Of a DNA stretch of 64,000 bases, positions 22,675-58,033 are shown piece by piece. The stretch is from a bacterium. Lineage in GTDB: Bacteria; SAR324; NAC60-12. Every line of letters begins with the position of its first letter. The first letter of the stretch is position 1. The translations under genes and the position numbers were made by a program. Below the pieces are notes generated by a model. The model did not search any database. It worked only from the letters and a program-made list of their open reading frames with translations, and was not told where the DNA came from. Location: positions 384,001 to 448,000 of the forward strand of contig CBDDTI010000747.1 of the NCBI GenBank assembly GCA_965233585.1. Reading direction: 5' to 3'.

Positions 22675-23722
22675 ATGTTAGAACAAATCAAATCCATTCA
22701 ATCCCGATTGTCAGGGGGGGGCTTTTTATGACAAGATAATCGTTTTCCTGACACTTCTGATCTTGGCAGGTTGCACACCGCCTGCTGAAGAAGAGGAAGA
22801 GGAAAACACCCAGAACCAAGCCACCTGCGAGGTCTCCTCTGGCAATTCTTTGACAACAGGTCAAGAACTGGTTGCCAACCTCACCTGCACCGCATCAACC
22901 ATCTACCAAGGTAAAAAATTAAGCATCACTTACGATGAAAGTTTGACTTCCTTGAAGCTGGTCGTTGGAGAAAAAGAGACAGTCGGTCAAAGCGGAACAC
23001 TCACCCACACCTTACCCAAACAAGAAAAATTTCAAGCCAAGTTGAAGCTCACAGGAGTCACAGCAGGCAAGGGGCAACTCAAGTTCAACATCTTGAGAAA
23101 AGAATCAAACTGGGCTTTTACAGTAGTCAACAACGAACTTGACATTTCCAAATACACTTGGAAACAAGTCGCCTCTTCAGCAGGTTGGTCTGCTCGGGAT
23201 TCTCACACAAGCGTCGTGTTCAATCACAAAATCTGGGTCATAGGAGGTTCTGCTAGTCCTTTTGTCAAGAAAAACGATGTTTGGAGTTCTTCTGATGGTA
23301 AGAATTGGACAAAAGCTACAGATTCAGCAGGTTGGTCTGCTCGGGATTCTCACTCAAGCGTTGCATTCAATAACAAAATCTGGGTGCTAGGAGGAATTGC
23401 TGGTGGCAGGAAAAACGATGTTTGGAGTTCTTCTGATGGTAAGAATTGGATAAAAGCTACAGATTCAGCAGGTTGGTCTGCTCGTTCTGCTCACGCAAGC
23501 ATTGCGTTCAACAACAAAATCTGGGTCATAGGAGGTTCTGATGGTGGCAAGAAAAACGATGTTTGGAGTTCTTCTGATGGTAAGACTTGGACAAAAGAAA
23601 CTTCTGCAGCAGGTTGGTCTGCTCGTGCTGGACACACAAGCGTCCTGTCCAATCACAAAATCTGGGTCATAGGAGGTTCTGATGGTGGCAGGAAAAACGA
23701 TGTTTGGGAATTTGGTCCCTAA
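22675..23722 (+). pseudogene. Modular lipoprotein paralog 1 (4 Kelch-like repeats), frameshifted at a G8 tract (putative phase OFF)
   Basis: AGGAG then ATG 22675 MLEQIKSIQSRLS; G8 at 22714-22721 leads to TGA at 22729. The downstream frame (DKIIVFLTLLILAGC...) is intact to 23722. Confidence 0.85.
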
Positions 23723-23819
23723 ATTCCGCCTCACGTCAACTCATCTTCTCTAAAAAAACACCTCGCTTGAATGACCAAGCGGGGTGGTTTCTTCTTACGC
23801 AAAACCAAACCTTCCTTTT

Positions 23820-24290
23820 CGTCATAGCACATCTTGAAAATCGTCATTGCGGGCTTGTTTTTTGGTCATTGCGGGTTTAACCGACAATCTCTATACAACC
23901 GTCATTGCTCACCTTGACCCGCAATCTCATCTTGTTTTTTTTCAACAATTCCTTTTTTTGAGATTCTGTATCAAGCACTCAAGTGACGGGAGGGTTTGGC
24001 TGGGTTGTTTTTTCTCGTCATTGCGGGACCTGACCCGCAATCTCATCTTGTTTTTTTCAACAATTCCTTTTTTTGAGATTCTGTATCAAGCACTCAAGTG
24101 ACGGGAAGGGCTTTGAGATTCTGAATCTCCCTTTCAATTCCTCTTCAGTGAAGGTCAACAAACCAGCGCTTGTTGCTAGCGGCAAAGCCTGACGGGATAG
24201 TTTTGCACAAAAAAAGAATGAGATTGCGGGACAAAGTGTGGTTGTCTTGTTTTGTATAAGAAGACAGACACGTTGGTCTGTCCCTACCAA
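23820..24290. repeat. REP-like palindrome cluster with an internal ~117-bp-period duplication
   Basis: tgacccgcaatctcatcttg...gagattctgtatcaagcactcaagtgacggga occurs twice; GTAG-REP at 24263-24287. Confidence 0.85.
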
Positions 24291-24295
24291 AAACA

Positions 24296-25912
24296 CTACC
24301 TCCCAAACTTGATTAAAAGCATGTCATTGCCTCCTGAATGGGTCTTCCCACCAAAATTTCCTCCAGAAAATCCTGTCACGTAAACATTGCCTTTAGAATC
24401 CACACTCACTCCTAACCCTTGATCATCCTTGTCAGTGCCAAGCAGTTTTGACCTCTTCTTGACGCCTGAACTGTCATACTTGATTAAAAACATGTCAGCA
24501 CTTCCTTGATTGGTTTTTCCATCAAAAGCTCCTGAAGAGAATCCTGTCACATAGACATTGCCTGCAGAATCCACACCCACTCCGTATCCCAAATCATCAT
24601 CGCTAGTGCCAACCAATTTAGACCACTGCTTGACACCTGAACTATCATACTTGATTAAAAACATGTCATCGCCTCCTTGATTGGTCTTTCCATCAAAAGC
24701 CCCTTCAGAGAGTCCTGTCACGTAAACATTGCCTGAAGCATCCACGCTCACTCCATGTCCTCTATCATCACCGCTAGTTCCAACCAACTTAGACCACTGC
24801 TTGTTGCCTGAACTGTCATACTTGATTAAAAACATGTCCTCTTTTCCTGAATGGGTCTTTGCATCAAAAGCTCCTTTAGAATATCCTGTCACGTAAACAT
24901 TGCCTGCTGAATCTACACTCACTCCTAATCCTTCATCAAAACCGCTAGTTCCAAGCAGTTGAGACCACTGCTTGACACCTGAAGTGTTATACTTCACTAA
25001 AAACATATCCCTCTTTCCTGAATTGGTCTTCCCATCAAAATTTCCTTCAGAGAATCCCGTCACGTAAACATTGCCTGCTGAATCCACACTCATTCCCTCT
25101 CCTATATCATTATCGTCAGAGCCAAGCAATTTAGACCACACCTTGTTGCCTGAAGTATCATACTTGATTAAAAACACGTCAGCACCTCCTTGATTGGTCT
25201 TTCCATCAAAACTTCCATCAGAGAATCCTGTGACATAGACATTATCTGATGAATCCACACCCACTCCTAATCCTTTTGTGGAAAGGCCACTGGTAACCAA
25301 CTTAGACCACTGCTTGTTGCCGTCCTTGTCATACTTCACTAAAAACATGCCTTCAAATGCTGGATTGGTCTTTCCATCAAAATTGCCATCAGAAAATCCT
25401 GTCACGTAAACATTGCCTTTAGAATCCACACTCACTCCTAGTCCATCATCACGAGATCGACTGCCAAGCAGTTCAGACCATTGTTTAGCCAAGTGTTCAG
25501 CAATGGCTTGGTTGTGGCAAGCCCACTCAGAAGCAGGCGTATTGCCTGATGCTTTCACACGAACACAGAGCTTGTCTTTGGCAATCGCATCATCTCCAAG
25601 ACTAAAAGGGCTACTGCAATCAGTTGGAGTTGTGCCTCCATCTTTGGAACATTCGTAACTCTTGCCTGAAGTGGTGGTAAAAGTGAGTGTTCTGGCTGAC
25701 ACTGACAAGCTAGTTGGTGGCTTGGGTGGCTTGGTAGCTTCAGCAGTGTTTTCATCTGATGGACTACGTTTGTCAGTGCAGGCAACAAGCACACTGAGAC
25801 CAAGCAAGATTGAACATTTCTTCAAAGAAGAAGGTTTAAGAAATGATGCAAAAGCATCGGTGCAGGCAACAAGTGCTTTTGAGAAAATCTGGATTGTATG
25901 ACATGCAAACAT
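24296..25912 (-). CDS. Lipoprotein with 7 SBBP repeats (paralog of 9091-10710)
   Basis: Near-identical N-terminus and upstream region; lipobox VLVAC; seven SBBP repeats. Confidence 0.9.
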   Translation of the reverse strand: MFACHTIQIFSKALVACTDAFASFLKPSSLKKCSILLGLSVLVACTDKRSPSDENTAEATKPPKPPTSLSVSARTLTFTTTSGKSYECSKDGGTTPTDCSSPFSLGDDAIAKDKLCVRVKASGNTPASEWACHNQAIAEHLAKQWSELLGSRSRDDGLGVSVDSKGNVYVTGFSDGNFDGKTNPAFEGMFLVKYDKDGNKQWSKLVTSGLSTKGLGVGVDSSDNVYVTGFSDGSFDGKTNQGGADVFLIKYDTSGNKVWSKLLGSDDNDIGEGMSVDSAGNVYVTGFSEGNFDGKTNSGKRDMFLVKYNTSGVKQWSQLLGTSGFDEGLGVSVDSAGNVYVTGYSKGAFDAKTHSGKEDMFLIKYDSSGNKQWSKLVGTSGDDRGHGVSVDASGNVYVTGLSEGAFDGKTNQGGDDMFLIKYDSSGVKQWSKLVGTSDDDLGYGVGVDSAGNVYVTGFSSGAFDGKTNQGSADMFLIKYDSSGVKKRSKLLGTDKDDQGLGVSVDSKGNVYVTGFSGGNFGGKTHSGGNDMLLIKFGR

Positions 25913-26043
25913 TTGATGGACTCCATGTAGAGGTTAGACAAAAAGACAACACCCAACGGGTGCTTTCGTGGGAACAACTCTTGGCTTGGAAAAAAAACAT
26001 CATCTGATTTTTAAGGAAAAGAGTTGAATAAAAAACAAAGCCT

Positions 26044-26071
26044 ATACTATGCAAGTACAAAAAAAATACAA
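26044..26071 (-). promoter_or_regulatory. Putative sigma70 promoter with a T8 run in the spacer (16-bp spacing)
   Basis: Minus strand TTGTAT-16 nt-TAGTAT; A8 at 26059-26066 on the plus strand. Confidence 0.55.
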
Positions 26072-26164
26072 GCCACGACTCAGAATTTTAAGGGATTTTT
26101 TGGTTTTTAAGGAATTTTTAAGATTTTTCAAAAAAATTTGAAAAAAAAGGAGTCAGTGAAGAAA

Positions 26165-26580
26165 ATGAGATTCCGTGTCAAGCACGGAATGACAAAGAAC
26201 GTCTTTACCTTGAAAGCCGTCATTGCGGGCTTGACCCGCAATCTCTCTTTTGTTCTTCTTTTGTTTTTTCTCATTGTATTTGCATTCTTCTTTTGAGATT
26301 CCGCATCAAGTGCGGAATGACTGAGAGAGTTTGCAGGTGTAGCTTTTCGTCATGGCTCACTTTGACCTGCAATCTCTATACGACAGTCATTCCTGTGAAA
26401 GCAGGAATCCATGCTTGGTTTAGTGATAGATTCCGCATCAAGTGCGGAATGACGGAAGAGGGAGAAAAGCTGAAAAATGAGAAGTTTGTTAGTCTGATCT
26501 GCTTAGATAAACTCGAGATTGTTTGAACTGCTCAATGTTTTCTATAAGAGTTACCGCATCAAGCACTCAAATGACTGAGA
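26165..26580. repeat. REP-like palindrome cluster
   Basis: gagattccgtgtcaagcacggaatgac, gtcattgcgggcttgacccgcaatct, gtcattcctgtgaaagcaggaatcc. Confidence 0.88.
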
Positions 26581-26619
26581 GAGGGTGCAAAGCTAAAAAA
26601 TGAGAAAGTTTTTTTGAGC

Positions 26620-29600
26620 TTACTTGCTCAGATAAACTTGAGATTGTTTGAACTGCTCAATATTTTCTATCAAAGTTGCATGAGGAATGTCTTTGGAAGT
26701 TTGTAGTTCTTCGTCAAGAACATGAAAGCTGACGGTTCTGCGTTTTTCTTTGGGGAAAACTTGTTGGGCAAAGTCTATTAGGTCTTGTTTTGTGATTTGG
26801 TCAAGCACTTGGAGCAACTGACTGACATCACCAAAATCTTTTTCTTTGTTCACAATAGCAGCCCATCTCATCTCTTCTACATCTTCTATTGATGCAGGCA
26901 ATTCAAGCAAGGCATCTCGTATAGATTGTTTGGTTTGCCGAAATACTTCATCAGGTAGTGAATTGATTTTTGCTTCAATTTGTTGTACGAATGTCTCAAT
27001 TTCTTGGTGTAACCTCAAGGCAGGATAGTCTGCAGATTGTAGGACAAACACAAGATGCCAAAACTTTTGGTTAGGGGAGAGGTACATGCTGGCAGTATAT
27101 CCTAGCTGTTTTTGGGTACGTAATTCTGTATAAAACGATGCTTTTAGAAGTCTTGACAAGAGAGAACCTTTGATATGCACTTGAGGGTTGTCTTGCCCTA
27201 GCTGAATGATGTACTTGACTGCAGAATTTTTGACGTTTGAGGGATATTGGAAGACGTGAGTTTTTTGGGGGATTTGCAAAAAATGTCTTTGAAAAATCTG
27301 GTCTTCAGTGAGTGGTTGAATTTTTAGTTTTTTCAATGATTGTCTAATGGCTAGGCGAGTCATGCGGGGGTCAAGGTTTCCATAGGCAAAGCCTTCAATG
27401 AATGACTCTTTCAAAAGTAATTTTGCAAATTTTTGGACATCACGCAGACGAATTGTTGCTAACTCTTTTTGATACTCCTGCACGGGTTGGGCATCTTGCC
27501 TTGTTAGAAGGTTTTCAAAATAGCTTGCTTGAGCCAATGGAGAACGTTTCCATAAATTGCGATACCCCCGTGAGTAGTCTTTTTTGATTTCCTCAAATTG
27601 TTTTTGTGGGAGGTTCAGTTCATGGAGTTGCCCTGTGACAAAATCCAAAACTTTCCATAGCTTATCTGAATATCCATAGACTTGGAGGAAAAACCCTTGT
27701 TTGCTGGTATAAAAAGAGACACCTGCCCCTGCAATGTTTAGCTCTTGACGGAATCCACTTAATTTTTTGCGTAAGACAGAAGTATAAAGTTCTCCCAATA
27801 AATCAGAACGGACGTTTTGTGAAATTTGGGGGTTGTGAAACATGAGTCGCACGCTTGCCTTGGGAGTGTCAAAACTAGTGTCTTGTGCAAACCATAAGCG
27901 CATACTTTTTTTATTGACTAAGCGATAAGGTTCATTGAACGCATGTTCCATGATTTTCTCTTGGGGTGCTGATGGACCGAGCTTGAGTTTCGCTTGCAAC
28001 TCCTCCCAAGTTTCAAAACGTTGGTCTTGCATCTGCTTCAATTTTTCCAAAATTTCTGTATCCAAATCACTTTCAGCCAGACTCAGCAGGGAGGCATGAG
28101 AAAAATAAAAAGGTGTTTGCTTGGGAAACTTAAACAAAGAATCTGGAAGCCAATGATTCTTAGGTGGTAATCTGAGGGAGCGATTCTGTTTGACATTCTT
28201 CAGACTCTTCAGCCATTTTTGGTCATTGTTTGTGTAAGTGTATTCTGTTTGATAAAAAGGGGTGACAGAGTTTGTTTGAACGGAAGTGTCAGTGAGAACA
28301 ATTAATAAGTTTTCTGGTCTTAGCCAAAAAAGGAATCGGTCAATAATTTTTTCATCAAACTGAATATAGGAAGAGGGAGTCTCGTATAAAGCGCGGATTG
28401 GAATTTTGCGTTGCATGATGCCCACAGCACTTGTTGTGATAGAAGAGCCATCTTCTCTACCAGAATATTTGAACTCCAAATCTGACAACTTCAATAATTC
28501 TTCCAGTCTGTTTTTTGGGATTCCTGTGTAGCGAAGCATTTTAATATATTGAAAGGTTTCTTTGACAATTTGCTGATAGTCTTTCAGTCCTTTTTTGGTC
28601 AATTTGACGTTTAAGTTGAGTGTAGAATAGGCTTTTGATGAATGACTAAAGGTCCATAATTCAGAGATGAGGTTCTTTTTTTTCAATGTTTCAGCAAGTC
28701 CACCTTTGCCTTGATGTCCCAAAAAGAAATTGATGGCGTTCACTGGTACCGAACGATAGTAGCGATCAGATGGGGGAAGGTAGAAGCGCAGCAAAAGTTG
28801 TTGAGTCTCTTTTTGGGGTTTGATTTGTAAAAATTTGACGCCTTTTGTGGGTGGCAAGATTTTTTGGTTAATTTGAAGTGGTTGAGTCTGGCGTCTAGGA
28901 ATTTGCTGAAAATATTTAAGTGCCAGTTCTTGTAACTCATCAAGGCTTTCACGTCCAAGAATGGCTAGAGTCATCACATGGCTAGAATAATTTGAGTGAT
29001 AAAAATCAATGACTTCTTGACGAGAGATTTGTGCCAGTGTTTCTCTGTTGCCTGTGGTAAACCTTGAGGCAGGGTGTTTGGGGTTTAAAACGGAACGAAT
29101 GGCAGACTGACGTAAGCGGTAGTCGCTGGATAAGCCATTGGAAAACTCTGAATGAACAATTTTAGCTTCACTTTCTACAAATTTAGGGTCAAAGAGTGGG
29201 GCAATGAAAAACTGAGACCAGCGGTCAAGCACTGCTTCAAGATGTTCTGGGTCAACTTCAAAAAAATATCTTGTGGCTTCATTGTACGTGGTGGCATTAG
29301 TATAGCCCCCTGTCTGTTGAAGAAATTCTGTGAGTTCTCCAACCTTGGGGTATTTTTCTGTTCCTAAAAACAAGAGATGCTCTAAAAAATGAGCCATACC
29401 TTGCCGACCTTTTGGGTCATGGAAGCTCCCTACTGAGACTTGCAAAGCTGCTGATGCTTTTTCAACATCAGGGTCAGAAATCAGTAATGTTGTGATTCCA
29501 TTGGGAAGCAGGACGTTGCGATATTGACGACGTTCATCACGTTCGTCTGGAATATCTTGAGGGGGAGCTGCATGTAAAAAGGTTGTAGCGAAAAATAATA

Positions 29601-29625
29601 CAAATCCAACTAGTCGTTTCGTCAT
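26620..29625 (-). CDS. M16A insulinase/pitrilysin-family zinc metallopeptidase (secreted)
   Basis: Signal peptide; GMAHFLEHLLFLGTEKYP (HxxEH); ELRTQKQLGY. Confidence 0.93.
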   Translation of the reverse strand: MTKRLVGFVLFFATTFLHAAPPQDIPDERDERRQYRNVLLPNGITTLLISDPDVEKASAALQVSVGSFHDPKGRQGMAHFLEHLLFLGTEKYPKVGELTEFLQQTGGYTNATTYNEATRYFFEVDPEHLEAVLDRWSQFFIAPLFDPKFVESEAKIVHSEFSNGLSSDYRLRQSAIRSVLNPKHPASRFTTGNRETLAQISRQEVIDFYHSNYSSHVMTLAILGRESLDELQELALKYFQQIPRRQTQPLQINQKILPPTKGVKFLQIKPQKETQQLLLRFYLPPSDRYYRSVPVNAINFFLGHQGKGGLAETLKKKNLISELWTFSHSSKAYSTLNLNVKLTKKGLKDYQQIVKETFQYIKMLRYTGIPKNRLEELLKLSDLEFKYSGREDGSSITTSAVGIMQRKIPIRALYETPSSYIQFDEKIIDRFLFWLRPENLLIVLTDTSVQTNSVTPFYQTEYTYTNNDQKWLKSLKNVKQNRSLRLPPKNHWLPDSLFKFPKQTPFYFSHASLLSLAESDLDTEILEKLKQMQDQRFETWEELQAKLKLGPSAPQEKIMEHAFNEPYRLVNKKSMRLWFAQDTSFDTPKASVRLMFHNPQISQNVRSDLLGELYTSVLRKKLSGFRQELNIAGAGVSFYTSKQGFFLQVYGYSDKLWKVLDFVTGQLHELNLPQKQFEEIKKDYSRGYRNLWKRSPLAQASYFENLLTRQDAQPVQEYQKELATIRLRDVQKFAKLLLKESFIEGFAYGNLDPRMTRLAIRQSLKKLKIQPLTEDQIFQRHFLQIPQKTHVFQYPSNVKNSAVKYIIQLGQDNPQVHIKGSLLSRLLKASFYTELRTQKQLGYTASMYLSPNQKFWHLVFVLQSADYPALRLHQEIETFVQQIEAKINSLPDEVFRQTKQSIRDALLELPASIEDVEEMRWAAIVNKEKDFGDVSQLLQVLDQITKQDLIDFAQQVFPKEKRRTVSFHVLDEELQTSKDIPHATLIENIEQFKQSQVYLSK

Positions 29626-29907
29626 GGAGTTACAGAGTGAAAAGAATTGATACTAAAGGAGACACAAGAATCACAGCGACAATAGGTGCAATTAACATAA
29701 TCATCTTCCATTGAAAAAGGTTCAAAATTAAAAACTTCAATGAAAGATTATATTTAAGATTACATATACAAGCAACAATTAATCATAAAATAGGAATTTT
29801 TTATAAAACCTTACTTTAACTAAAAGTGAAACAGAATGCTTAACGCAGGGACAACTATTGCCAGAGAAACAAGAGTCGCAACTAACATAAAAAAACTCCA
29901 AAGATAA

Positions 29908-30978: not shown

Positions 30979-31185
30979 CGTGCTATTTGATGTTTGAAAA
31001 AAAGACCATTGAAACCAGCCCAATAATATAACATACAACTTGAATGATGTCACCCATTAAAAACACTAAAAATTAAAAATGTTTCATTTCTGGCTTGGGT
31101 AAACCATCACTCCATTTTGCATGACCCATTTTTCAGAAAACCCGACATGAGAAATGGCATTGCGACTTTTGTCTTTTGACAGATT

Positions 31186-31995: not shown

Positions 31996-32039
31996 CTGAT
32001 TTCAGCAAGTGTTGATTTTTCAGCAAATCTTAGGAGGGT

Positions 32040-33437: not shown

Positions 33438-33464
33438 AAGAAATAAGAATAAAAATAGCTTGGG

Positions 33465-34175: not shown

Positions 34176-34246
34176 GGAAGCATGATCCTTATTAAACTTT
34201 CAAATGAGACAAGAATATAAGGATTGCACAGTATTGTCAATGCAAT

Positions 34247-35388: not shown

Positions 35389-35460
35389 TGTAAAAGGTAT
35401 AGATAAAAATGTAAGAAAATTGACAACGATAGAAACTATCGCTGTCAAGCCAGAGTCAAT

Positions 35461-37719: not shown

Positions 37720-37780
37720 TTGAATACTACAATAATTGTAGTGTGTCTTTGCAGGAGCGATGTGATAGCTGAATGATGAT

Positions 37781-44347: not shown

Positions 44348-44414
44348 AGATAGGAAACCATTTAGAATATTTCTTTTTATAATTTTGCCCTAACCTGTTT
44401 AATTTGGATTTACC

Positions 44415-45740: not shown

Positions 45741-45836
45741 AGTCCATCGCTAGCCAGACCCAAAGCCAAATCAAATTCATTCCAGACTGGGTTTGAAACC
45801 TTCAGCAATATTTTTTAAAAAATAAATGAGGCAAAA

Positions 45837-47375
45837 ATGATTCATTCAAAGGACTCTTCTGATTTTTTAGAAGTTTTACAAATACAAGACCAAAACTACG
45901 GTGTGGCAATAGGTGGCAAAGAGTGGCTCAAAAATACAAACGTCAATAATTTGTCATCTTTCAATCCGACTGACAACACTGTGATTGCCAAAGTGTATGA
46001 GGGCAACCGAGCTGATTATCATACTGTCATTGAACATGCTCATCAGGCGTTTGGCACTTGGAGAATGCTTCCTGCCCCAAAAAGAGGCGAAGTCGTGCGT
46101 GCCATTGGTGAAAAGCTGAGGCAGTATAAAAAAGAGTTAGGTGCATTGGTCAGTTTGGAAATGGGTAAGATTCTGCAAGAAGGTGAGGGAGAAGTCCAAG
46201 AGATGATAGACATTGCAGATTTTGCAGTGGGATTGTCAAGGCAACTTTACGGCAAGACAATGCACTCTGAAAGAGAACAGCACCGAATGTATGAGCAATA
46301 TCACCCTTTGGGAATTGTGGGTGTGATTTCTGCCTTTAACTTTCCCGTGGCAGTCTGGTCTTGGAATGCTTTGATTGCCGCAGTTTGTGGAAATGTAGTG
46401 GTCTGGAAGCCCTCCCTTAAAACTCCTTTGTGTGCTGTGGCTGTTCAACATATTTGCGACGAAGTGTTGAAAGATTTTGGACTTACTGGCATTTTTAATC
46501 TGGTCATTGGTTCAGACCAAGACGTTGGAGAGGCACTGACAGAAGACCACCGTGTGCCATTAATTTCTGCAACAGGTTCTACTAGAATGGGACAGCATGT
46601 TGCAACCAAAGTGGCAGCAAGATTGGGCAAGACTATTTTGGAGCTAGGTGGCAACAATGGCATCATCTTAGACAAAGATGCTGACTTCAGCCTTGCCATT
46701 CCAGCCATTGTCTTTGGAGCGGTTGGCACTGCTGGGCAACGATGCACCACCACCAGAAGACTCTTTGTGCATCATAGTCAGTATGAAGAAGTTTTGATGC
46801 AGCTAAAGAATGCCTATGCACAAATCGCAATAGGCAATCCTCTGGAGGGGGCTTTGTTGGGACCTTTGATTGATCAGGCAGCAGTGAACGATTATGAAAA
46901 CGCTATCGCATTAGCCAAGTCACAAGGTGGAGAAGTCGTTTACGGAGGTTCAGCCTTGCACCATCAGGCAGGGAATTTTGTTGAGCCAACTCTCATCAAA
47001 GCAAAATCTTCTTTTGATATTGTCAAAACTGAAACGTTTGCACCCATTTTATACGTGATGAGCTACGAGCATTTGGACGAAGCAATCCAAATGCACAATG
47101 ACGTCCCGCAAGGACTTTCTTCAGCAATCTTTACTAACAATCTCATCAGTGCAGAAACCTTTTTGTCTCATCAAGGCAGTGATTGTGGCATTGCAAACGT
47201 CAACATTGGCACATCAGGGGCAGAAATCGGGGGGGCTTTTGGTGGAGAAAAAGAGACAGGAGGAGGCAGAGAGGCAGGTTCTGATGCGTGGAAGGCTTAC
47301 ATGAGACGCCAAACAAACACCATCAACTGGGGTGCAAAACTTCCTTTAGCTCAAGGAATTAAATTTGAAATCTAA
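45837..47375 (+). CDS. ALDH7/antiquitin-type aldehyde dehydrogenase (piperideine-6-carboxylate dehydrogenase-like)
   Basis: [53 protein letters not shown]. Confidence 0.93.
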
Positions 47376-47398
47376 TTTCTTTGAGTAGGCAACCCAAG

Positions 47399-48361: not shown

Positions 48362-48678
48362 TCCACCAACGACTAAAACATCTTCCTCCTTCCTCAAACT
48401 TCTAAACACTCATCACTCAAACTACCCCAAGCCATTTATTTTGAGCAAATTCAATCCGCTTACGACCAAATGCCTCAAAAAATGGCATGAATCACACAAT
48501 GACATGTTGGCAATGAACTTAAAAGTCTTGTCCATTCTGATTCATTGATGATGAAAAGCCAATCACGAAAAAAAACAATTTTAAAAGTTGCATTTGTTTT
48601 CCAAGGTCTGCTAGAATCCTTAACTCTCTTTTATTTCTTTTTTTTCATTCTGATTTAACCATGATTTAGGAGTTTCTT

Positions 48679-49916
48679 ATGCTAGAACAAATCAAATCCA
48701 TTCAAAACTTGCTGTCAGGGGGGGGGCTTTTTATGACAAGATAATCGTTTTCTTGACACTTCTGGTCTTAGCAGGTTGCACACCTCCTGCTGAAGAAAAT
48801 AAGGAGGGAGAGACGAAGAAGGGTGAAGCTACGTGCGAGGTCAACTCAAACAGTTCTGTCTCAACAGGTCAAGAATTGGTTGCCAATTTCACTTGCACTA
48901 CCACATCAATTTATCAAGGCAAAAAATTAAACATCACTTACGATGAAAGTTTGACTTCCTTGAAGCTGGTCGTCTCAGGTGAAGAAACAACGGGGCAAAG
49001 TGGAAAACTCACCTACACCTTACCTAAACAAGAAGAATTTCAAGCCAAACTGAAGTTAACAGGAGTCACAACAGGCAAGGGACAACTCAAGTTTAAGATT
49101 TTGAGCAAAAAATCAAACTGGGATTTTACAGTGGTACAAGGGGGACCAAAAGCATTGACGTTGGGTGCAGCGGTTGCGTCAACTGCTTTTACCAAGATGC
49201 AAGACACATCAGGCAAAGCCTATGGACGTTCAGTGATGAGGTTAGACACTTCTCAAACTTTAGTTTCCAATGACGAGGAACATTGCGAAGATGCTCCTTT
49301 GAATGCCTTGCTTGTCTCATCAGATAGCTTTGTCAATTGTGAGAAAGTGCATGTTCAGAAAGGCAACAACACCAATCATGTCATCATTCCCAAACAAACT
49401 TGGGACTTGAACAAAACCTACAAAGTAGCAGTCAAGACAGCTGGCGGTGCTTCTGCATTCAATCGCTCTGGCAATCCTGTCTCCTTCACCACTAATAATG
49501 CCAACCACAACACAGCGGCTCACATCACAGGCTTTGATGTTGGGTCAAGACCTAAGGTGCTAAACAATCAATTCCACTTAGAAAAAGATGGAGAACTCTG
49601 GTATTACATCAGTAAAGGTGAGACAGTACCAAGATATGATGCCAGTGAATGTCGGACAATCAACTACAAGGCAACAGATAACAAACAATTCAAAAACCTT
49701 ACTGGCATCAATCAAGCTGATAGAGTGTTTGCTAGGACTATTTTAGATGGTAACACTAGCCACTATCTTGTTACTGGAACTAGTACTCGCACCAATGTCT
49801 ATCCACTCCGTGCATCAAGAGACGGTAATGCTGGTCAACAGAATCTTAGAGTAGGGGCTAGATTTGCTGATATTTACTATTACTTGTGTTTTGTGAAGAC
49901 TCCAGAACGTTCTTAA
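48679..49916 (+). pseudogene. Modular lipoprotein paralog 2 (variable C-terminus type), frameshifted at a G9 tract (putative phase OFF)
   Basis: ATG 48679 MLEQIKSIQNLLS; G9 at 48718-48726 leads to TAA at 48742. Downstream frame intact, with an LAGC lipobox. Confidence 0.85.
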
Positions 49917-49939
49917 ACGTTTTCGTTGCTTCTTCCTTT

Positions 49940-50250
49940 TTGTCACTGCGGGCTTGACCCGCAATCTCTTCTTTTCTCAATCTTCCCTTTTTCTTTTCTT
50001 TGTTGTGGGCTTGTTTTTTTGTCATTCCTGCGGAAGCAGGAATCTATCCTTTAACTGCTGATGGATTCCGTGTCAGGCAACGAATGACTGATGAAGTTTG
50101 CAGTCTTGCATTTGGTCATTCCTGCCTCTTTTTTGTCATTCCTGCGAAGGCTCCGAATCCAGTCATGTAGGAATCCATGCTTGGTTTGGTGATAGATTCC
50201 GTGTCAGGCTGACTAATTTGACGTCATTGCTCACCTTGTTCCGCAATCTT
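49940..50250. repeat. REP-like palindrome cluster
   Basis: GTCATT/AATCT palindromes; a ~115-bp block is nearly identical to 51955-52070. Confidence 0.85.
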
Positions 50251-50422
50251 AAACTTTCATTTTTTCAAAAGCTGACTTGCTTGTTTCTTTGACTTTTTGC
50301 TCAAACCACTAAAAATAATCAAAATTCATCATTTTAAAAGTTGCATTTGTTTTGAATAGTTTGCTAGAATCGTTATCTTGTTTTTGTTCTTTTTCTTTTC
50401 AACCATTATTTAGGAGATTTTT

Positions 50423-51652
50423 ATGTTAGAACAACTCAAGTCCGTTCAGACCCTTTTTGTCAGGGGGGGGGCTTTTTATGACAAATCAATCATTTTCTTG
50501 ACACTTCTGGTCTTGGCAAGTTGCACACCGCCCAATGAAGAAAATGAGGAGGACGCCACACAGAATCAAGCCACTTGCGAGGTCTCCTCTGGCAATTCTT
50601 TGGAAACAGGTCAAGAATTGGTCGCAAACCTCACATGTAACGTATCAGAGACCCATCAAGGCGAAAAATTAAACATCACTTACGATGCAAGTTTGACGTC
50701 TTTGAAGCTGATTGTTGGAGAAAAAGAAACAGTCGGGCAAAGCGGGAAACTCACCCACACCTTACCTAAACAAGAAAAATTTCAAGCCAAGCTAAAGCTC
50801 ACAGGAGTCACAGCAGGCAAAGGGCAAATCCAATTCAAAATCTTGAGTCAAGAATCAAACTGGGGTTTTACAGTAGTTAGTGGAGTGAAGCCATTTTTAA
50901 GCGGGGTTGTTACAGCGTCAGTTTTTACTAAGATGCAAGACACATCAGGCAAAGCTTATGGACGTTCAGTGATGCGATTAGATACTTCTGAAACCCTCCT
51001 TTCCAATGACGAGACAGTTTGCAAAGATGCCCCTTTGAATGCACTGCTTGTCTCATCAGATGACTTTGTCACTTGTGAGAAAGTGCATGTTCAGAAAGGC
51101 AACAACACCAATCATGTCATCATTCCCAAACAAACTTGGGGCTTAAACGAAACTTACAAAGTTGCAGTGAGAACAGCAAGTGGTGCTTCTGCCTTCAATC
51201 GTTCTGGCAATGCCGTTTCCTTCACTACCAACAATGCCAATCACAACACGGCAGCTCACATTACCAGATTTGATGTGGCTTCGTTCTCTAAAGTAGATGG
51301 AAATAGCTTCCACTTGGAAAAAGATGGAGAACTCTGGTATTTCATCAACAAAGGACTCACTGCGCCAAGGTATGATGCCAGTGAATGTCAGGCAATCAAC
51401 TACAAGGCGACAGATGACAAACAATTTAAACATCTTGCTGGCAGAAGCAGGACTGACAAAGTGTTTGTCAGAACTATTTTAGATCAAAGTATTAATTACA
51501 TTGTTTCTGGTTCTAGTACTGGAGTTAATGCCCATTCACTCCTTGCACGTTTAGACGGTTTCAATGTTGCCCCCAATCATTCTCCAGTGGGACAGTCAAA
51601 AACTGGGGGACTCTATTATCTTTGTTCTGTGAAGATTCCAGAACGTTCCTAA
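50423..51652 (+). CDS. Modular lipoprotein paralog 3, G9 tract in frame (ON)
   Basis: G9 at 50463-50471 read as R-G-G-A; lipobox LASC. Confidence 0.9.
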   Translation: MLEQLKSVQTLFVRGGAFYDKSIIFLTLLVLASCTPPNEENEEDATQNQATCEVSSGNSLETGQELVANLTCNVSETHQGEKLNITYDASLTSLKLIVGEKETVGQSGKLTHTLPKQEKFQAKLKLTGVTAGKGQIQFKILSQESNWGFTVVSGVKPFLSGVVTASVFTKMQDTSGKAYGRSVMRLDTSETLLSNDETVCKDAPLNALLVSSDDFVTCEKVHVQKGNNTNHVIIPKQTWGLNETYKVAVRTASGASAFNRSGNAVSFTTNNANHNTAAHITRFDVASFSKVDGNSFHLEKDGELWYFINKGLTAPRYDASECQAINYKATDDKQFKHLAGRSRTDKVFVRTILDQSINYIVSGSSTGVNAHSLLARLDGFNVAPNHSPVGQSKTGGLYYLCSVKIPERS

Positions 51653-51699
51653 ACGTTTTCGTTTCTTTTTTTCCTTCCTACCTTCTCATTTGTTTAAGT

Positions 51700-51722
51700 A
51701 AAGGGGGCGTCCGCTCCCTTTT
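51700..51722 (+). terminator. Intrinsic terminator-like hairpin shared by paralogs 3, 4 and 6
   Basis: AAAGGGGGCGTCCGCTCCCTTTT; similar hairpins at ~54246-54272 and ~58077-58101. Confidence 0.6.
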
Positions 51723-51744
51723 CGTGACCTGCTGGCTTGCCTTT

Positions 51745-52075
51745 CAGCCATTGCTGACCTTGCCACCCTCAATCTCTCTTTTGTTTTTGAGATTCCGTGT
51801 CAGGCACTCAAGTGACGGGAGGATTTTGCTCACTTTGAAAACTGTCATTGTGGGCTTGACCCGCAATCTCAAGAACGTTCTTAATCGCTTTCGTTGTTTT
51901 TCAGATTCCGTGTCAGGCACGGAATGACTAAGACAAGCACCAAATGACAACTATTGTCATTCCTGCGAAAGCTCCGAATCCAGTCATGTAGGAATCTGTG
52001 CTTGGTTTGGTGATAGATTCCGTGTCAGGTTGACTAATTTGACGTCATTGCTCACCTTGTTCCGCAATCTGACTC
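51745..52075. repeat. REP-like palindrome cluster
   Basis: Same palindrome families as elsewhere in the window. Confidence 0.85.
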
Positions 52076-52152
52076 TTGTTTAGAGATTGCTTTTAGAAAG
52101 ATTATCGTGCCATAATCTTTTCTTTTCGTTCAGGGTTTTCAGATTTCGGGCA

Positions 52153-52566
52153 ATGCAAGCACCACACGGATTTTACAAAAAGCTAGTTTCCAACGGCTTT
52201 ACAAGAGAACAAGCAGAAGGACTCACAGAAGCACATACCGAATTTTTTGAAGAAGTCTTGGAACGAGAGACCAAACTCATCAAAGTAGATTTTAAAAGTG
52301 AGCTTGCCACCAAGGAAGATGTCCAGAATGTCAAAGATGAACTGAAAGATGTCAGAGATGAACTGAAAGAAGACATTCAAAATGTCAGAGATGAACTGAA
52401 AGAAGACATTCAAAATGTCAGAGATGAGCTGAAAGAAGACATCTATTTTTTAAAAGGAGACCAGAAACTCCTTAAATGGATGGTTGCTTTTGGCATTTCT
52501 TTAAATCTAATCACACTTGGGGTGCTATTAGCCTTTTTGTTCTCTTTTCTCCCTCCTGCCAAATAA
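52153..52566 (+). CDS. DUF1640/CCDC90-like coiled-coil membrane-anchored protein
   Basis: LVSNGFTREQAEGL, LATKED, 11-aa EDIQNVRDELK repeats, LLKWMV followed by a TM segment. Confidence 0.8.
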   Translation: MQAPHGFYKKLVSNGFTREQAEGLTEAHTEFFEEVLERETKLIKVDFKSELATKEDVQNVKDELKDVRDELKEDIQNVRDELKEDIQNVRDELKEDIYFLKGDQKLLKWMVAFGISLNLITLGVLLAFLFSFLPPAK

Positions 52567-52599
52567 AACCCTGTCTTTTTTAGTAACGCTTGTTTTTTT

Positions 52600-52775
52600 G
52601 AAATTCCGTATCAAACACTCAAGTGACTGATGACGTTTGCAGATTTGTTTTTTGTCATTGCGGGACTTGACCCGCAATCTCAATCCTATTTTTGCGATTC
52701 CATGTCAAGCACGGAATGACGTGAGGAATTTGCTCATCTTGAGGACTGTCATTGCGGGCTTGACCCGCAATCTCA
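52600..52775. repeat. REP-like palindrome cluster
   Basis: gtcattgcgggcttgacccgcaatct and variants. Confidence 0.85.
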
Positions 52776-52961
52776 AACTTCCATCTTCAAAAAAAACTTA
52801 TTTTCAAAAGCTGACCTGCTTGTTTCTTTGACTTTTCGCTCAAACCATTAAAAATAATTAAAAAAGATGATTTTAAAAGTTGCATTTGTTTTGAATGGTC
52901 TGCTAGAATCGTAACCTTGTTTTTGTTCGTTCTCATTTAACATTTATCAAAGGAGTTTTTT

Positions 52962-54188
52962 ATGTTAGAACAAATCAAATCCATTCAAACCCTTTTTGTC
53001 AGGGGGGGGGCTTTTTATGACAAATCAATCGTTTTCTTGACAATGCTTGTCTTGGCAGGTTGTGTTCCGCCAGGGGAAGAGGAGAAAGAAGATGGACTTG
53101 CCAGCAACATCAAGTGCGAGGTGGACTCTACCGAATCCGTTACAACAGGTGAGGAACTGGTTGCCAACGTCACATGCAACACACCAGAACTTGCTCAAGG
53201 CAGAAAATTACAGGTCATTTACGATGAAAGTTTGACTTCTTTGAAGCTAGTCGTGGCAGAAGAAGAAACAATCGGGGAAGATGGAAAGTTGACTTACACT
53301 TTACCTAATCAAGAACAATTCCAAGCCAAACTGAAGTTAACAGGAGTTGCAGAAGGAGAAGGACAAGTCAAGTTCAAAATCTTGAGTCAAAAATCAAACT
53401 GGGCATTCACAGTGGTCAGAGGAGGACCAAGGGCATTGACTTTAGGTGCAGATGTCGCGGCATCTGTCTTTACCAAGATGCAAGATTCATCAGGCAAAGC
53501 CTATGGACGTTCCGTGATGAGATTAGACACTTCTGAAACCCTTGTTTCCAATGACGAAGTACATTGTGAGAATGCTCCTTTGAATGCACTGCTTGTCTCG
53601 TCAGATGACTTTGCAAATTGTGAGAAGGTCTATGTTCAAAAAGGCGCTAACACCAATTATGTCATCATTCCCAAGCAAACTTGGGCGTTAAACAAAACTT
53701 ACAAAGTGGCAATCAAAACGGCAAACGGAGGCTCTGCTTTCAATCGTTCTGGCAACCCTGTTTCCTTCTCCACGAACGATGCTAATCACAAAACCACTGC
53801 ACACGTCACCAGATTTGATGCTGGGGCAAGACCTAAAGTGCTAGACAATCAATTCCATTTGGAAAAAGATGGAGACCTTTGGTATTACATCAGCAAAGGC
53901 GACACATTGCCCCAATATAATCCCACTGAATGCCAAGAGATCAACTATCAAAATGCAGATGACGTCAAATTTACAAATCTTGCTAGCATTGATGATTCTG
54001 CCAAAGAATTGGCTAGATCTCTTAATCGCAGAACCAGAAGGTATATCGCTGATGCTGCTGGAAATAACCGAGTTAAGGTATTTGTTACCACCCTATCATC
54101 TAAGAAAACTTTTTTCCATACGGTAGGCAAACATCCTTTTCATATATTTATTTATTTTTGTTCTGTTCAGATTCCAGAACGTACCTAA
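52962..54188 (+). CDS. Modular lipoprotein paralog 4, G9 tract in frame (ON)
   Basis: G9 at 53002-53010; lipobox LAGC. Confidence 0.9.
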   Translation: MLEQIKSIQTLFVRGGAFYDKSIVFLTMLVLAGCVPPGEEEKEDGLASNIKCEVDSTESVTTGEELVANVTCNTPELAQGRKLQVIYDESLTSLKLVVAEEETIGEDGKLTYTLPNQEQFQAKLKLTGVAEGEGQVKFKILSQKSNWAFTVVRGGPRALTLGADVAASVFTKMQDSSGKAYGRSVMRLDTSETLVSNDEVHCENAPLNALLVSSDDFANCEKVYVQKGANTNYVIIPKQTWALNKTYKVAIKTANGGSAFNRSGNPVSFSTNDANHKTTAHVTRFDAGARPKVLDNQFHLEKDGDLWYYISKGDTLPQYNPTECQEINYQNADDVKFTNLASIDDSAKELARSLNRRTRRYIADAAGNNRVKVFVTTLSSKKTFFHTVGKHPFHIFIYFCSVQIPERT

Positions 54189-54199
54189 ACGTTTTCTTC

Positions 54200-54935
54200 T
54201 CGTCATTGCGGGCTTGACCTGCAATCTCAAACTTTCTCATTTTAAAAAAAGGGGGCGTCCTGCTCCCTTTTTCTTACCTTTGTTTTTCATTTTCGTCTTC
54301 TTAGCAAGCGGGGTAGTCAGAGAAATAGAACGGAGTCATTCGGAGCGAAAGCAGAAATCCATGCTTGGTTTGGTAATAGATTCCGTGTCAGGCACGGAAT
54401 GACTGGGAGAATTGAAACACCCCGACCTGCGGACTTTGCTTTCTCATTCCTCTCATTCCTTTGTTATTGCCCACCTTGTCTGCATCTCTACACAACCGTC
54501 ATTGCGGGCTTGACCCGCAATCTCCATACAACCGTCATTGCGGACTTGATCCGCAATCTCACTCTTGTTTTTTGAGATTCCGTGTCAGGCACGGAATGAC
54601 TGGGAGAATTGAAACACCCCGACCTGCGGACTTTGCTTTCTCATTCCTCTCATTCCTTTGTTATTGCCCACCTTGTCTGCATCTCTACACAACCGTCATT
54701 GCGGGCTTGACCCGCAATCTCTCCCCACTTTCTTTCTTCTTTTGTTTTCTCTCTGCTCTACTCTCACTCTTGTTTTTTTGAGATTCCTCACCAAGTGTAG
54801 CATGACTGCTACTGTCATTCGGAGCGAAAGCTCTGAATCCAGTCATGTAGGATTCTGTGCTTGGGTTTAAGATAGATTCCGTGTCAAGCACGGAATGACG
54901 GGAGGATTTTGCTCACCTTGACCCGCAATCTCAAA
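54200..54935. repeat. REP-like cluster with a ~147-bp exact direct duplication (54378-54524 / 54575-54721)
   Basis: agattccgtgtcaggcacggaatgactgggagaattgaaacacccc...gacccgcaatctc is repeated with a period of 197 bp. Confidence 0.9.
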
Positions 54936-55065
54936 ATTCCTCGCTATTTTAAGCAAGCGAATCAAAATTCATCATTTTAAAAGTTGATTTTGTTTTTGAA
55001 AATTTGCTAAAATCATCATCTTGTTTTTTGTTCATTCTCACTTAACCATTATTTAGGAGGTTTTT

Positions 55066-56406
55066 ATGTTAGGACAAATCAAATCAATTCAAAACTCTCT
55101 TGCTAGGAGAGGTTTTTTTTATGACGGAATAATTGTTTTCTTGACACTTCTTGCTTTAGCGGGTTGCACACCTCCTGCTGAAGAAAATGAAGAAGGAAAT
55201 GAAGCCTCCAATGACGTCAAGTGCAAGGTCACCTCTGGCAATTCTTTGGAAACAGGTCAAGAATTGGTTGCCAACCTCACCTGCACCGCATCAACAATTT
55301 ATCAAGGTAAAAAGTTAAACATCACTTACGATGAAAGTTTAGCTTCTTTGAAGCTGGTCGTTGGAGAAAAAGAAACAGTTGGACAAAGTGGAAAGTTGTC
55401 TTACATTTTACCTAGAAAAAAAGAATTTCAAGCCAAGCTGAAGTTGACAGGAGTGACAGCAGGCAAAGGTCAACTGCAATTCAAAATCTTGAGAAAAAAA
55501 TCAAACTGGGCTTTTACAGTGGTCAATGGCAACGGACTTGACATTAACAACGGAGCTGACGTTTCCAAATACACTTGGAAGCGGGTCGCTTCTTCAGCAG
55601 GGTGGTCTGCTCGTAATGTTCACACAAGCGTCGTGTTCAATAACAAAATCTGGGTACTAGGAGGAATTGATTTTGGCAGAAAAAACGATGTCTGGAGTTC
55701 TTCTGATGGCAAGAATTGGACAGAAGAAACTTCTTCAGCAGGTTGGTCTGCTAGGAATTCCCACACAAGCGTCGTGTTCAATAACAAAATCTGGGTGCTA
55801 GGAGGAATTGATTCTGGCTGGAAAAACGATGTCTGGAGTTCTTCTGATGGCAAGAATTGGACTCAAAGCACAGCTTCAGCAGGTTGGTCTGCTCGTGCTT
55901 TGCACACAAGCGTTGTGTTCAATAACAAAATCTGGGTGCTGGGAGGTTTTACTGGTGGCAATAAAAACGATGTCTGGAGTTCTTCTGACGGCATTAATTG
56001 GACAGAAGACACTTCTTCGGCAGGTTGGGATGCCCGTTATGATCACGCAAGCGTCGTGTTCAATAACAAAATCTGGGTGCTAGGAGGCTCTGGTAAAAAC
56101 GATGTCTGGAGTTCTTCTGACGGCATTAATTGGACTCAAAGTACAGCTTCAGCAGATTGGTCTACTCGTGATTCTCACACAAGTGTCGTGTTCAATAACA
56201 AAATCTGGGTGCTAGGGGGATTTGATGGCGTCAGGAAAAACGATGTCTGGAGTTCTTCTGACGGCAGTAATTGGACAGAAGATACTTCTTCAGCAGGTTG
56301 GGATGTTCGTGCTGGACATAAAAGCGTTGTGTTCAACAACAAAATCTGGGTGCTAGGAGGTAGAAGCACTGCGAAAAGAAACGATGTTTGGGCAGCTGGT
56401 CCCTAA
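55066..56406 (+). CDS. Modular lipoprotein paralog 5 (6 Kelch-like repeats); T8 tract in frame in place of poly-G
   Basis: aggagaggTTTTTTTTatgac (T8 at 55113-55120); lipobox LAGC; six WSARxxHTSVVFNNKIWVLGG..KNDVWSSSDG-type repeats. Confidence 0.9.
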   Translation: MLGQIKSIQNSLARRGFFYDGIIVFLTLLALAGCTPPAEENEEGNEASNDVKCKVTSGNSLETGQELVANLTCTASTIYQGKKLNITYDESLASLKLVVGEKETVGQSGKLSYILPRKKEFQAKLKLTGVTAGKGQLQFKILRKKSNWAFTVVNGNGLDINNGADVSKYTWKRVASSAGWSARNVHTSVVFNNKIWVLGGIDFGRKNDVWSSSDGKNWTEETSSAGWSARNSHTSVVFNNKIWVLGGIDSGWKNDVWSSSDGKNWTQSTASAGWSARALHTSVVFNNKIWVLGGFTGGNKNDVWSSSDGINWTEDTSSAGWDARYDHASVVFNNKIWVLGGSGKNDVWSSSDGINWTQSTASADWSTRDSHTSVVFNNKIWVLGGFDGVRKNDVWSSSDGSNWTEDTSSAGWDVRAGHKSVVFNNKIWVLGGRSTAKRNDVWAAGP

Positions 56407-56524
56407 ATTTCACTACCTGTCAATTCGTCTTCTCTTAAAACCACCTTGCTTGAATGATCAAGCGGGGGTGTTTCTTCTTACGCAAAACCAAACCTTCCTT
56501 TTCATCACTTGCTGTCTTGTTTTT

Positions 56525-56665
56525 TGGTCATTCGGAGCGAAAGCAGGAATCCAATCATGTAGGAATCTGTGCTTGGTTTAAGATAGATTCCGTGTCAAGC
56601 ACGGAATGACCAAACACAACCCAGCAAAATTCTCCCGTCATTGCGGGCTTGACCCGCAATCTCAA
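56525..56665. repeat. REP-like palindrome cluster
   Basis: gtcattcggagcgaaagcaggaatcc, agattccgtgtcaagcacggaatgac. Confidence 0.85.
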
Positions 56666-56850
56666 ACTTCCATCTTCCAAAAAACCGTTATTTCAAAAGG
56701 AACACTTGCTTGCTTCTTTGATTTTTTGCTCAAGTCATTAAAAATAATTAAAAAATGATTTTAAAAGTTGCATTTGTCTTTCAAGGTGCTAAAATCGTAA
56801 CCTTCTTTTTTGTTCGTTCTCATTTAACCAAATCATTTAGGAGTTTTTTT

Positions 56851-58033
56851 ATGTTAGAACAAATCAAATCCATTCAAAACCTCTTGTCAGGGGGGGGCTT
56901 TTTATGACAAAGTAATCCTTTTCTTGACACTTCTGGTCTTGGCAGGTTGCACACCGCCTGCTGAAGAAAACGAGGGGGAAGCCACCCAAAATCAAGCCAC
57001 TTGCGAGGTCACCTCTGGCAGTTCTTTGGCAACGGGTCAAGAATTGGTTGCAGACTTAACATGCGCTGTATCAAACATTTATCAAGGCAAACGGTTAAGC
57101 ATCGCTTACGATGAAAGTTTGACGTCTTTGAAGCTGGTTGTGTCAGGGGACAAAGCAGTCGGACAGATTGGAACGTTAAACTACAAATTACCTAGAAAAA
57201 AAGAGTTTCAAGCCAAGCTGAAGTTGACAGGAGTCGCAGCAGGCAAGGGACAACTCAAGTTCAAAATCTTGAGAAAAAAATCAAATTGGGATTTTACAGT
57301 AGTCGCTGCTGACAATGCTTTGACCAAGATGCAAGACTCATCAGGCAAAGCTTACGGACGTTCGGTGTTGAGATTAGATACTTCTCAAACATTAGTTTCT
57401 AATGATGAGACAGTTTGCAGAAATGCACCTTTGAATGCACTGCTTGTGTCGTCAGATAATTTCACAACTTGTGAAAAAGTGTATGTTCAAAAAGGCGACA
57501 ACACCAATCATGTCATTATTCCCAAACAGACTTGGGGCTTAAACAAAACTTACAAACTGGCAGTCAAAACGGCAAGCGGAGCTTTTGCACTCAATCGTTC
57601 TGGCAATCCTGTCTCCTTTAACACAAACAATGCCAATCACAACACTGTGGCTCACGTCACCAAGTTTGATGCTGGTTCAATACCTCAAGTGCTAAACAAT
57701 CACTTCCATTTGGAAAAAGACGGAGAACTCTGGTATTACATCAACAAAGGAACAAACGCACCAAGGTATGACGCCAGTGAATGTCGGTCTATCAACTACA
57801 AGGCAACAGATGATAAACAATTTAAAAACCTTAGTGGACTCAATCAAGCTGACAGAGAGCTAGCCAAAACTATTTTAAACCGCAATAGTTACTATATTGC
57901 TTCTGTTACTGGAGGTGGAAATACTCGTTTGTATAGACTCTCAACAACCATAGGCACTAACTCCAATGTGGGAGGTCCATTGGCTTCTAATCTTTACTAT
58001 CTTTGTTTTGTGAAGATTCCAGAACGTGCTTAA
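56851..58033 (+). pseudogene. Modular lipoprotein paralog 6, frameshifted at a G8 tract (putative phase OFF)
   Basis: ATG 56851 MLEQIKSIQNLLS; G8 at 56890-56897 leads to TGA at 56905. Downstream frame intact. Confidence 0.85.

Follow-up and report, generated by a model that had tools for sequence, protein, structure and literature searches.

An uncultured SAR324-type bacterium carries a family of genes for predicted lipoproteins in which a run of guanines lies within a 17-codon leader, and the family probably undergoes translational phase variation through slipped-strand mispairing at this run. Six members stand in the window, by which we mean the whole stretch of DNA that was analysed, 64,000 nucleotides of one contig (G000:C747:384001-448000). 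An earlier note, made from the letters of the window alone, had described the six as a surface lipoprotein family with a homopolymer ON/OFF switch in the signal peptide. The coordinates, starts, runs and stops that it gave for the six copies, together with the late TTG codons at which the list of open reading frames (ORFs) starts some of them, were all confirmed in the sequence. The number six holds for the window; a paralog search with an nhmmer profile built from their 5' regions located 20 family sites in the assembly, 18 canonical and two divergent. The ON/OFF reading is borne out by the layout of the genes, by the mixture of ON and OFF copies, by the lesion-free and selected bodies of OFF copies and by the concentration of breaks in pure runs; it is weakened by the shortness of the runs, by the presence of MutS and MutL and by the dead appearance of some copies.

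The copies in the window are laid out as follows, in positions of the whole stretch:

22540..22674, plus strand: conserved block upstream of copy 1, read from the sequence and the six-copy alignment
22593-22598 and 22617-22622, plus strand: putative promoter of copy 1, a -35-like TTGCAT and, after an 18-nucleotide spacer, a TG-preceded -10-like TAAAAT
22664-22668, plus strand: Shine-Dalgarno sequence AGGAG of copy 1
22675..23722, plus strand: copy 1, OFF; the frame of the leader ATG ends at TGA 22729, and the body of 332 codons, with an Ig-like N-domain and Kelch repeats, lies in the +1 frame
22714..22721, plus strand: G8 run of copy 1; leader of 49 nucleotides, 51 being in frame
48544..48678, plus strand: block upstream of copy 2, conserved in the alignment
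48679..49916, plus strand: copy 2, OFF; stops at TAA 48742; 395-codon body made up of the N-domain and a C-domain without known family
48718..48726, plus strand: G9 run of copy 2; leader of 50 nucleotides
50288..50422, plus strand: block upstream of copy 3, conserved in the alignment
50423..51652, plus strand: copy 3, ON, 409 amino acids; predicted beta-sandwich of immunoglobulin (Ig)-like type at residues ~44-156
50463..50471, plus strand: G9 run of copy 3; leader of 51 nucleotides, in frame
52827..52961, plus strand: block upstream of copy 4, conserved in the alignment
52962..54188, plus strand: copy 4, ON, 408 amino acids
53002..53010, plus strand: G9 run of copy 4; leader of 51 nucleotides, in frame
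54931..55065, plus strand: block upstream of copy 5, from the alignment and a promoter scan (TTGATT, 18 nucleotides, TAAAAT with TG)
55066..56406, plus strand: copy 5, in frame, 446 amino acids, Kelch C-domain
55113-55120, plus strand: run position of copy 5, where AGGAGAGG is followed by T8 instead of a G run, a 'locked' form
56716..56850, plus strand: block upstream of copy 6, conserved in the alignment
56851..58033, plus strand: copy 6, OFF; stops at TGA 56905; body of 377 codons
56890..56897, plus strand: G8 run of copy 6; leader of 49 nucleotides

In each of copies 1, 2 and 6 the frame is regained with G7 or G10, and in the mechanical ORF list they begin at the late TTG codons 22763, 48753 and 56924. 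Runs of at least seven G are strongly enriched in the window (14 overlapping matches against 1.84 expected, a count reached by none of 100 shuffles), and the only G7 outside the family, at 47229, is ordinary coding sequence within an aldehyde dehydrogenase gene. Genome-wide, gene callers misplace the starts of eight family genes at late TTG codons, losing the signal peptide.

The cassette is identical in layout in the 18 canonical copies and analogous in the two divergent ones. The six window copies align over 135 nucleotides of upstream sequence and the first 125 nucleotides of the gene with a mean column identity of 81%. The conserved upstream sequence, as read from the alignment, comprises a -35-like TTGCAT, an 18-nucleotide spacer and a TG-preceded TAAAAT or TAGAAT, and each copy is likely to be preceded by a sigma-70-like promoter; a consensus promoter scan scores the site in the copy at 55066 only. 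AGGAG sits 6-7 nucleotides 5' of the ATG. The leader then consists, in this order, of the codons for MLEQIKSIQ, a pyrimidine-rich segment of 8 or 9 nucleotides, GTCA, the G run and an invariant CTTTTTATGAC; in the alignment of the window copies TTTTTATGAC 3' of the run is likewise invariant. Beyond the run, the body frame reads FYDK-IIVFLTLLVLAGC-TPPAEE, a hydrophobic core with a lipobox. Bacterial lipoproteins are recognized by such a motif, [LVI][ASTVI][GAS]C after a hydrophobic h-region, and inspection by eye of the mature frame found FYDK-IIVFLTLLVLAGC, or a form ending in LASC, in 17 canonical copies out of 18, the remaining one having TGA at the Cys codon. Lipidation and export of the family proteins are predicted on this basis. 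When the leader sequences were read, no ATG, GTG or TTG was found in the body frame between the run and the hydrophobic core, and the ATG within TTTTTATGAC, considered as an alternative start, was rejected because it is out of the body frame and opens just 3-7 codons. There being no other usable start in the body frame, export would depend on the leader ATG being in frame. As in contingency loci, the reading frame contains a simple repeat, and it shifts when the repeat becomes longer or shorter.

Uninterrupted runs are present in 12 of the 20 copies (one G7, four G8 and seven G9), and only four of these are in frame, the other eight being out. The runs of the remaining eight copies are broken by substitutions (AGGAGAGGT, AGGAGAAGG, AGAAGAAAC, GGGCGTGGT, GGGGGGTGG twice, GGTGCGGGT and GGGGGTG). 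Seven of these interrupted-run copies are in frame, six with ATG and one with ATA for ATG and a 217-codon body, and one is out. Loss of frame is thus associated with purity of the run (8/12 against 1/8; Fisher p=0.028), and the divergent pair follows the same pattern, with a G9 copy that is OFF and a GGGGGGTGG copy that is ON. All in-frame copies have a leader of 51 nucleotides, whereas the canonical OFF leaders have 49 (n=5) or 50 (n=3). Indels in the leader occur at two sites, namely the G run itself and the segment before it, which is either 8 or 9 nucleotides long.

The frameshifts of all nine out-of-frame copies, eight canonical and one divergent, fall within a 20-nucleotide segment of the leader. 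Open bodies of 332-438 codons are found in 17 of the 18 canonical copies, the exception being C746:288736, which ends after 217. Seven of the eight canonical OFF copies have no second lesion over 332-428 codons, and the divergent OFF copy is open over the ~110 codons that were read. Synonymous divergence (dS) and the ratio of nonsynonymous to synonymous divergence (dN/dS) were compared between pairs of copies. The OFF-OFF pair C747:432679 (copy 2) and C746:321993 has a dS of 0.31 and a dN/dS of 0.30, and the OFF-OFF pair 406675 (copy 1) and 517914 a dS of 0.13 and a dN/dS of 0.65; dN/dS is 0.38-0.56 in ON-ON pairs. The bodies of the OFF copies are under purifying selection, and the OFF-OFF values indicate that, for the greater part of their history, these copies were under selection at the protein level. 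Since their bodies are open and selected, the OFF states are recent when set against the divergence between copies. A tree of 18 tips built from the DNA of the N-domain requires six or more changes of frame state.

The copies also bear traces of other kinds of change. C747:432679 and C746:321993 are identical across 450 nucleotides of the N-domain despite their overall dS of 0.31, and their leaders differ, the first having the 8-nucleotide segment with G9 and the second the 9-nucleotide segment with G8; this points to gene conversion between the two, with one end near the run. Copy 1, on the other hand, has a body of 332 codons where its sister on the minus strand (G000:C747:517914) has 428. 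Its shorter Kelch part and retained C-terminal end suggest that repeats were lost in frame.

A scheme for phase variation can be proposed from these features. Each gene would be a self-contained cassette of promoter, AGGAG, ATG, leader with G7-G9, hydrophobic core and lipobox (L-A-G/S-C), Ig-like N-domain and variable C-domain. Translation would start at the leader ATG alone, and the length of the run would set whether the ribosome enters the signal peptide in frame: a leader of 51 nucleotides would be ON, and one of 49 or 50 would be OFF, with a stop after 18-21 codons. Slippage at the G run during replication would add or remove single G's. In this way some 12 genes might each flip back and forth independently of the others, so that a population would come to contain mixed sets of lipoproteins, and the copies whose run is broken by substitution would be fixed, mostly ON. 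We infer that the runs are hypermutable, that the changes are reversible and that switching is of benefit.

Several observations weigh against this scheme. All eight canonical OFF leaders are shorter than 51 nucleotides and none is longer. In the six copies with the 8-nucleotide pre-run segment, G10 or G7 would be required for the ON state, and their runs (G8, G8, G8, G7T, G9 and G9) include neither. Three copies look dead, through additional damage or a decayed run: C746:325691 has TGA at the lipobox Cys codon, C746:288736 combines ATA for ATG with its 217-codon body, and in C745:43705, which is out of frame, the run has decayed to G5TG, so that G5 and T6 are all that is left of runs. The genome has intact MutS and MutL, and the runs are short, G8-G9 being at or below the cut-off of G>=9 given for Neisseria (PMC5953494), so that switching may be slow; the same source cites a G7 run in siaD as switching. 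The population data consist of four sequencing runs from one study and two samples, in the form of Logan contigs, which drop rare variants. Over 48400-58399 these contigs, which come in short pieces with a word depth of 2-7 and without discernible run-bridging pieces, list no indels. SNPs distinguish the two samples between 52.1 and 53.8 kb. The earlier note had proposed a comparison with related genomes, which came to nothing: the family is present in none of 40 relatives, and no same-genus relative exists for a comparison of orthologous runs. A search of genome contigs with a family protein gave no match either.

Two candidates for variation or wider occurrence were discarded. The substitution 53008 G>T, the sole difference inside a run in the contigs of the sequencing runs, matches the paralog C746:50591 together with 52978 A>G and reflects cross-mapping, and 54 metagenome stretches that match the leader DNA pattern were all judged to be chance matches (nhmmer and by eye). 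Those contigs also join the intergenic points 49975-50200, 51813-51930, 54509-54773, 56523-56527 and 58107-58347; given such joins between distant points, the spacers 3' of the paralogs must share repeated sequence.

Gene birth and death without an adaptive switch is the alternative that fares best, and we regard it as unlikely. The run would then be a weak point of the gene, the OFF copies would have been inactivated recently and reversal would be too rare to matter. Such a history would readily produce the three copies with further damage (the Cys stop, the ATA with truncation and the decayed out-of-frame run), and it is in keeping with OFF leaders that are all contractions, with short runs in the presence of mismatch repair and with the lack of polymorphism in the low-depth contigs. 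It does not, however, explain why the break falls in the same 20 nucleotides in 8 of the 12 copies with a pure run, why all but one of the eight canonical OFF copies lack a second lesion or why an OFF-OFF pair has a dN/dS of 0.30 at a dS of 0.31. Moreover, the run is still pure in 12 copies despite the synonymous positions within it.

The frame states could also be artefacts, every copy being truly in frame and a G10 or G9 having been under-called in the consensus or the assembly. The OFF copies are indeed always too short and never too long, the similar 5' regions of the paralogs could hamper polishing and the available data are contigs, not raw reads. Control runs were taken from the bacterial part of the assembly. 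The assembly is a bin of 12 Mb, in which a bacterial coding density is found in five contigs of 136 kb to 1.07 Mb and in 41 small ones; ORFs of at least 100 amino acids cover 84-94% of the five large contigs. About 700 small contigs (~8 Mb) of low coding density, with a median of 29% covered by ORFs in a sample of 60, were excluded. On the five large contigs, 15 of the 17 G/C8-9 runs outside the family lie within frames that are open for at least 150 nucleotides on both sides, and none has a frame-switch signature. Of the 12 pure runs of the family, 8 are out of frame, compared with none of the 15 control runs in intact frames (p=2e-4). Frame-switch signatures are also few at A/T runs (19 of 2274 A/T7 and 22 of 597 A/T8), and the A/T8 cases belong mostly to one IS1-like element. 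Assembly error is made very improbable by these intact control frames. Furthermore, six of the eight OFF copies show a one-base difference in a non-homopolymer segment as well, the indel before the run lies outside homopolymers in most copies, and C745:43705 is out of frame with no run longer than T6. The excluded small contigs, which look like non-bacterial DNA in the bin, hold 409 of the 414 G/C runs of at least 10 bases (10-31 bases) in the assembly, and the marker-based contamination estimate of 2.09% does not register their ~8 Mb.

Recoding is slightly more doubtful still. OFF copies would in that case be expressed through slippage of RNA polymerase or ribosomal frameshifting at the G run or at C-UUU-UUA. 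An invariant AGGGGGGGG-C-UUU-UUA-UGA-C does follow the run, which we take to resemble a Shine-Dalgarno sequence with UGA-C after it, as at the prfB site. For a poly-G gene of Mycoplasma agalactiae, the authors of PMC2824730 also raised ribosomal shifting. Leaders of 49, 50 and 51 nucleotides would nevertheless need a +1 shift, a -1 shift and no shift in one sequence context, and efficient shifting would damage the in-frame copies. The search for sequencing runs that cover the region listed no RNA run.

The least probable explanation, a conserved RNA structure with the run as one arm, gives no reason for the broken frames, could coexist with a switch and has nothing beyond base composition to support its hairpin or terminator. 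Its two candidates are a pyrimidine arm that pairs with the G run and has U5 after it, in the manner of an intrinsic terminator or attenuator, and an inverted repeat TTGTCA...TGACAA around the run, which is paired in 97.8% of cells and is nearly invariant and so uninformative. A terminator scan flags three of the five G-run leaders in the scanned stretch and the hairpin with T8 of the copy at 55066, and Watson-Crick pairing is kept in three interrupted copies. The folding energies are nevertheless like those of shuffles (z -3.3 to +1.1, 16 of 18 within +/-1.1), and the covariation score was reached by 106 of 500 shuffles, only one pair being changed on both sides.

In the 409-residue copy, residues ~44-156 form the Ig-like beta-sandwich, within an AlphaFold model whose overall predicted local distance difference test score (pLDDT) is 50.9 and of which the N-domain alone is usable. 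This domain aligns with pilin, macroglobulin, cohesin and invasin domains at VIA-align Z scores of 7.2-9.6, the fold being a common one. The C-domains vary: Kelch repeats (PF01344, cut-off 20.1 bits) are matched by the copy at 55066 with 111.4 bits and by the body of copy 1 at 22763 with 81.1 bits, while in the other four window copies the C-domain of ~250 amino acids has no Pfam match. In Pfam, the two Kelch-type matches are the only significant ones among the six window copies, and no Opa-type outer-membrane beta-barrel family is hit. For the three proteins tried, no NCBIfam family scored above its cut-off, and the Atlas protein search, with scores of at most 0.77, gave no lead. Surface exposure of the family and an antigenic or adhesin role, as supposed in the earlier note, would be compatible with generic hints such as the Ig-like N-domain and the Kelch repeats.

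Relatives outside this genome are few. Among 5.8 billion clustered proteins, P0011 is the only full-length outside relative, at 46% identity. A profile search of 1.84 billion representatives returned 20 proteins; 17 of them were newly listed (P0016-P0032), of which eight are 100% identical to this genome and P0018 is 99.5% identical (tblastn). In the outside relatives P0011, P0019, P0020, P0022, P0029 and P0030 the lipoprotein signal peptide is of the ordinary kind and lacks both the leader and the run, as it does in the distant in-genome paralogs P0016, P0023, P0024, P0025, P0026, P0031 and P0032. The leader cassette is therefore a derived feature of one subfamily.

The earlier guess of a probably uncharacterised lineage agrees with the FliP encoded in the window, which is closest to metagenome-assembled genomes (MAGs) of the SAR324 cluster (76%, 69% and then 64% identity), two MAGs labelled Deltaproteobacteria standing at 73%. 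The neighbouring genes are ordinary chromosomal ones (fliO, fliP, adenylate kinase and an M16 peptidase). Elsewhere in the genome, a second class of repeats lies in 5' coding regions at seven loci, with 7-nucleotide units at six and an 8-nucleotide unit at one, in 8-24 copies:

C295:101577-101695: second-class repeat
C746:71141-71266: second-class repeat
C745:167236-167298: second-class repeat
C746:488283-488450: second-class repeat
C747:156519-156574: second-class repeat
C747:846356-846435: second-class repeat
C295:240617-240721: second-class repeat

The units are (ATCCGCA/GATTGCG)n in 8-24 copies at five loci, (ATTTGCGG)10 and (TTCCGAC)15. At five of the seven loci, conserved flanks put the repeat a few codons past an ATG, and these repeats are likely to be further frame switches.

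Three other homopolymer sites were noticed. A C13 run at C295:21866-21878 has the inverted repeat TTTGTCAT...ATGACAAA on either side and lies ~190 nucleotides 5' of a lipobox-like VVGC in an open frame of 6750 nucleotides; the words of this inverted repeat also bracket the family G run. A C14 run at C729:57424-57437 stands at the junction of two frames on the same strand, open over 556 nucleotides upstream and, in another frame, over 479 nucleotides downstream; it could mark either an additional switch or a gene that has been broken. Finally, an IS1-like element on the minus strand of the window (10765-11833) has a T8 at ~11498, an A8 site between two frames, which is probably a programmed transposase frameshift. 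Its matches to the InsA helix-turn-helix domain and to DDE_Tnp_IS1 are weak, just under the cut-offs, and the same open-frame signature recurs at at least 15 places on large contigs.

Slippage switches belong to the textbook repertoire of host-bound pathogens. The family of 20 genes with a switch cassette, together with the second repeat class, suggests that stochastic switching of the envelope also occurs in uncultured lineages that are not pathogens. In a search of the literature no paper connected SAR324 with phase variation, and in another, on contingency loci and MAGs, the top 10 of 136 matches were all pathogen or methods papers. A tentative wider reading, to which we give somewhat less than even credence, is that an uncultured SAR324-type bacterium, away from the usual setting of pathogens, has ~12 poly-G switches with a portable cassette, spread by gene conversion, and at least seven loci with 7- or 8-nucleotide repeats, and that these would generate combinatorial variation of the envelope that might be directed against phages, grazers or a eukaryotic partner. 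The mechanism itself is already known. What is new is the lineage, the protein family and a cassette common to bodies with different C-domains.

Among systems with related switches, Campylobacter jejuni and Helicobacter pylori possess genic poly-G/C ON/OFF contingency loci. Campylobacter and Helicobacter are not known to have the mismatch repair genes, whereas the SAR324 bacterium has them. In the opa genes of Neisseria, the repeat is located in the region that encodes the leader peptide. These genes are the closest in architecture, being multi-copy envelope families in which each copy has its own repeat and is independently turned ON or OFF in translation (PMC5953494). Gonococci have up to 11-12 opa paralogs with a pentamer repeat, and short- or broken-repeat copies that do not switch exist (PMC5953494); the interrupted-run copies described here would resemble the latter. 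In contrast to the opa pentamer, the repeat of the SAR324 family is a homopolymer. Opa proteins are beta-barrels, whereas the SAR324 proteins are predicted lipoproteins with no sequence relation to them by Pfam, so that the likeness is one of mechanism only. Neisseria is, in addition, a host-restricted pathogen in which switching has been demonstrated, whereas in the SAR324 family it is predicted. In the repeat itself, pilC, lgtA and pglA of Neisseria are nearer, with an in-frame homopolymeric G/C ON/OFF switch of G 9-21 (PMC5953494), compared with G7-G9 here. The closest match in detail is offered by the lipoprotein genes P48-like (MAGa1620) and MAG3460/MAG1570 of M. agalactiae, in which a 5' poly-G sets the frame of the signal peptide and lipobox. 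Their runs span G8-G10, with G10 in P48-like and G8 versus G9 between two strains (PMC2824730). There, single genes for unrelated proteins are involved, in a wall-less and host-bound organism; here, a family of 20 members shares one cassette.

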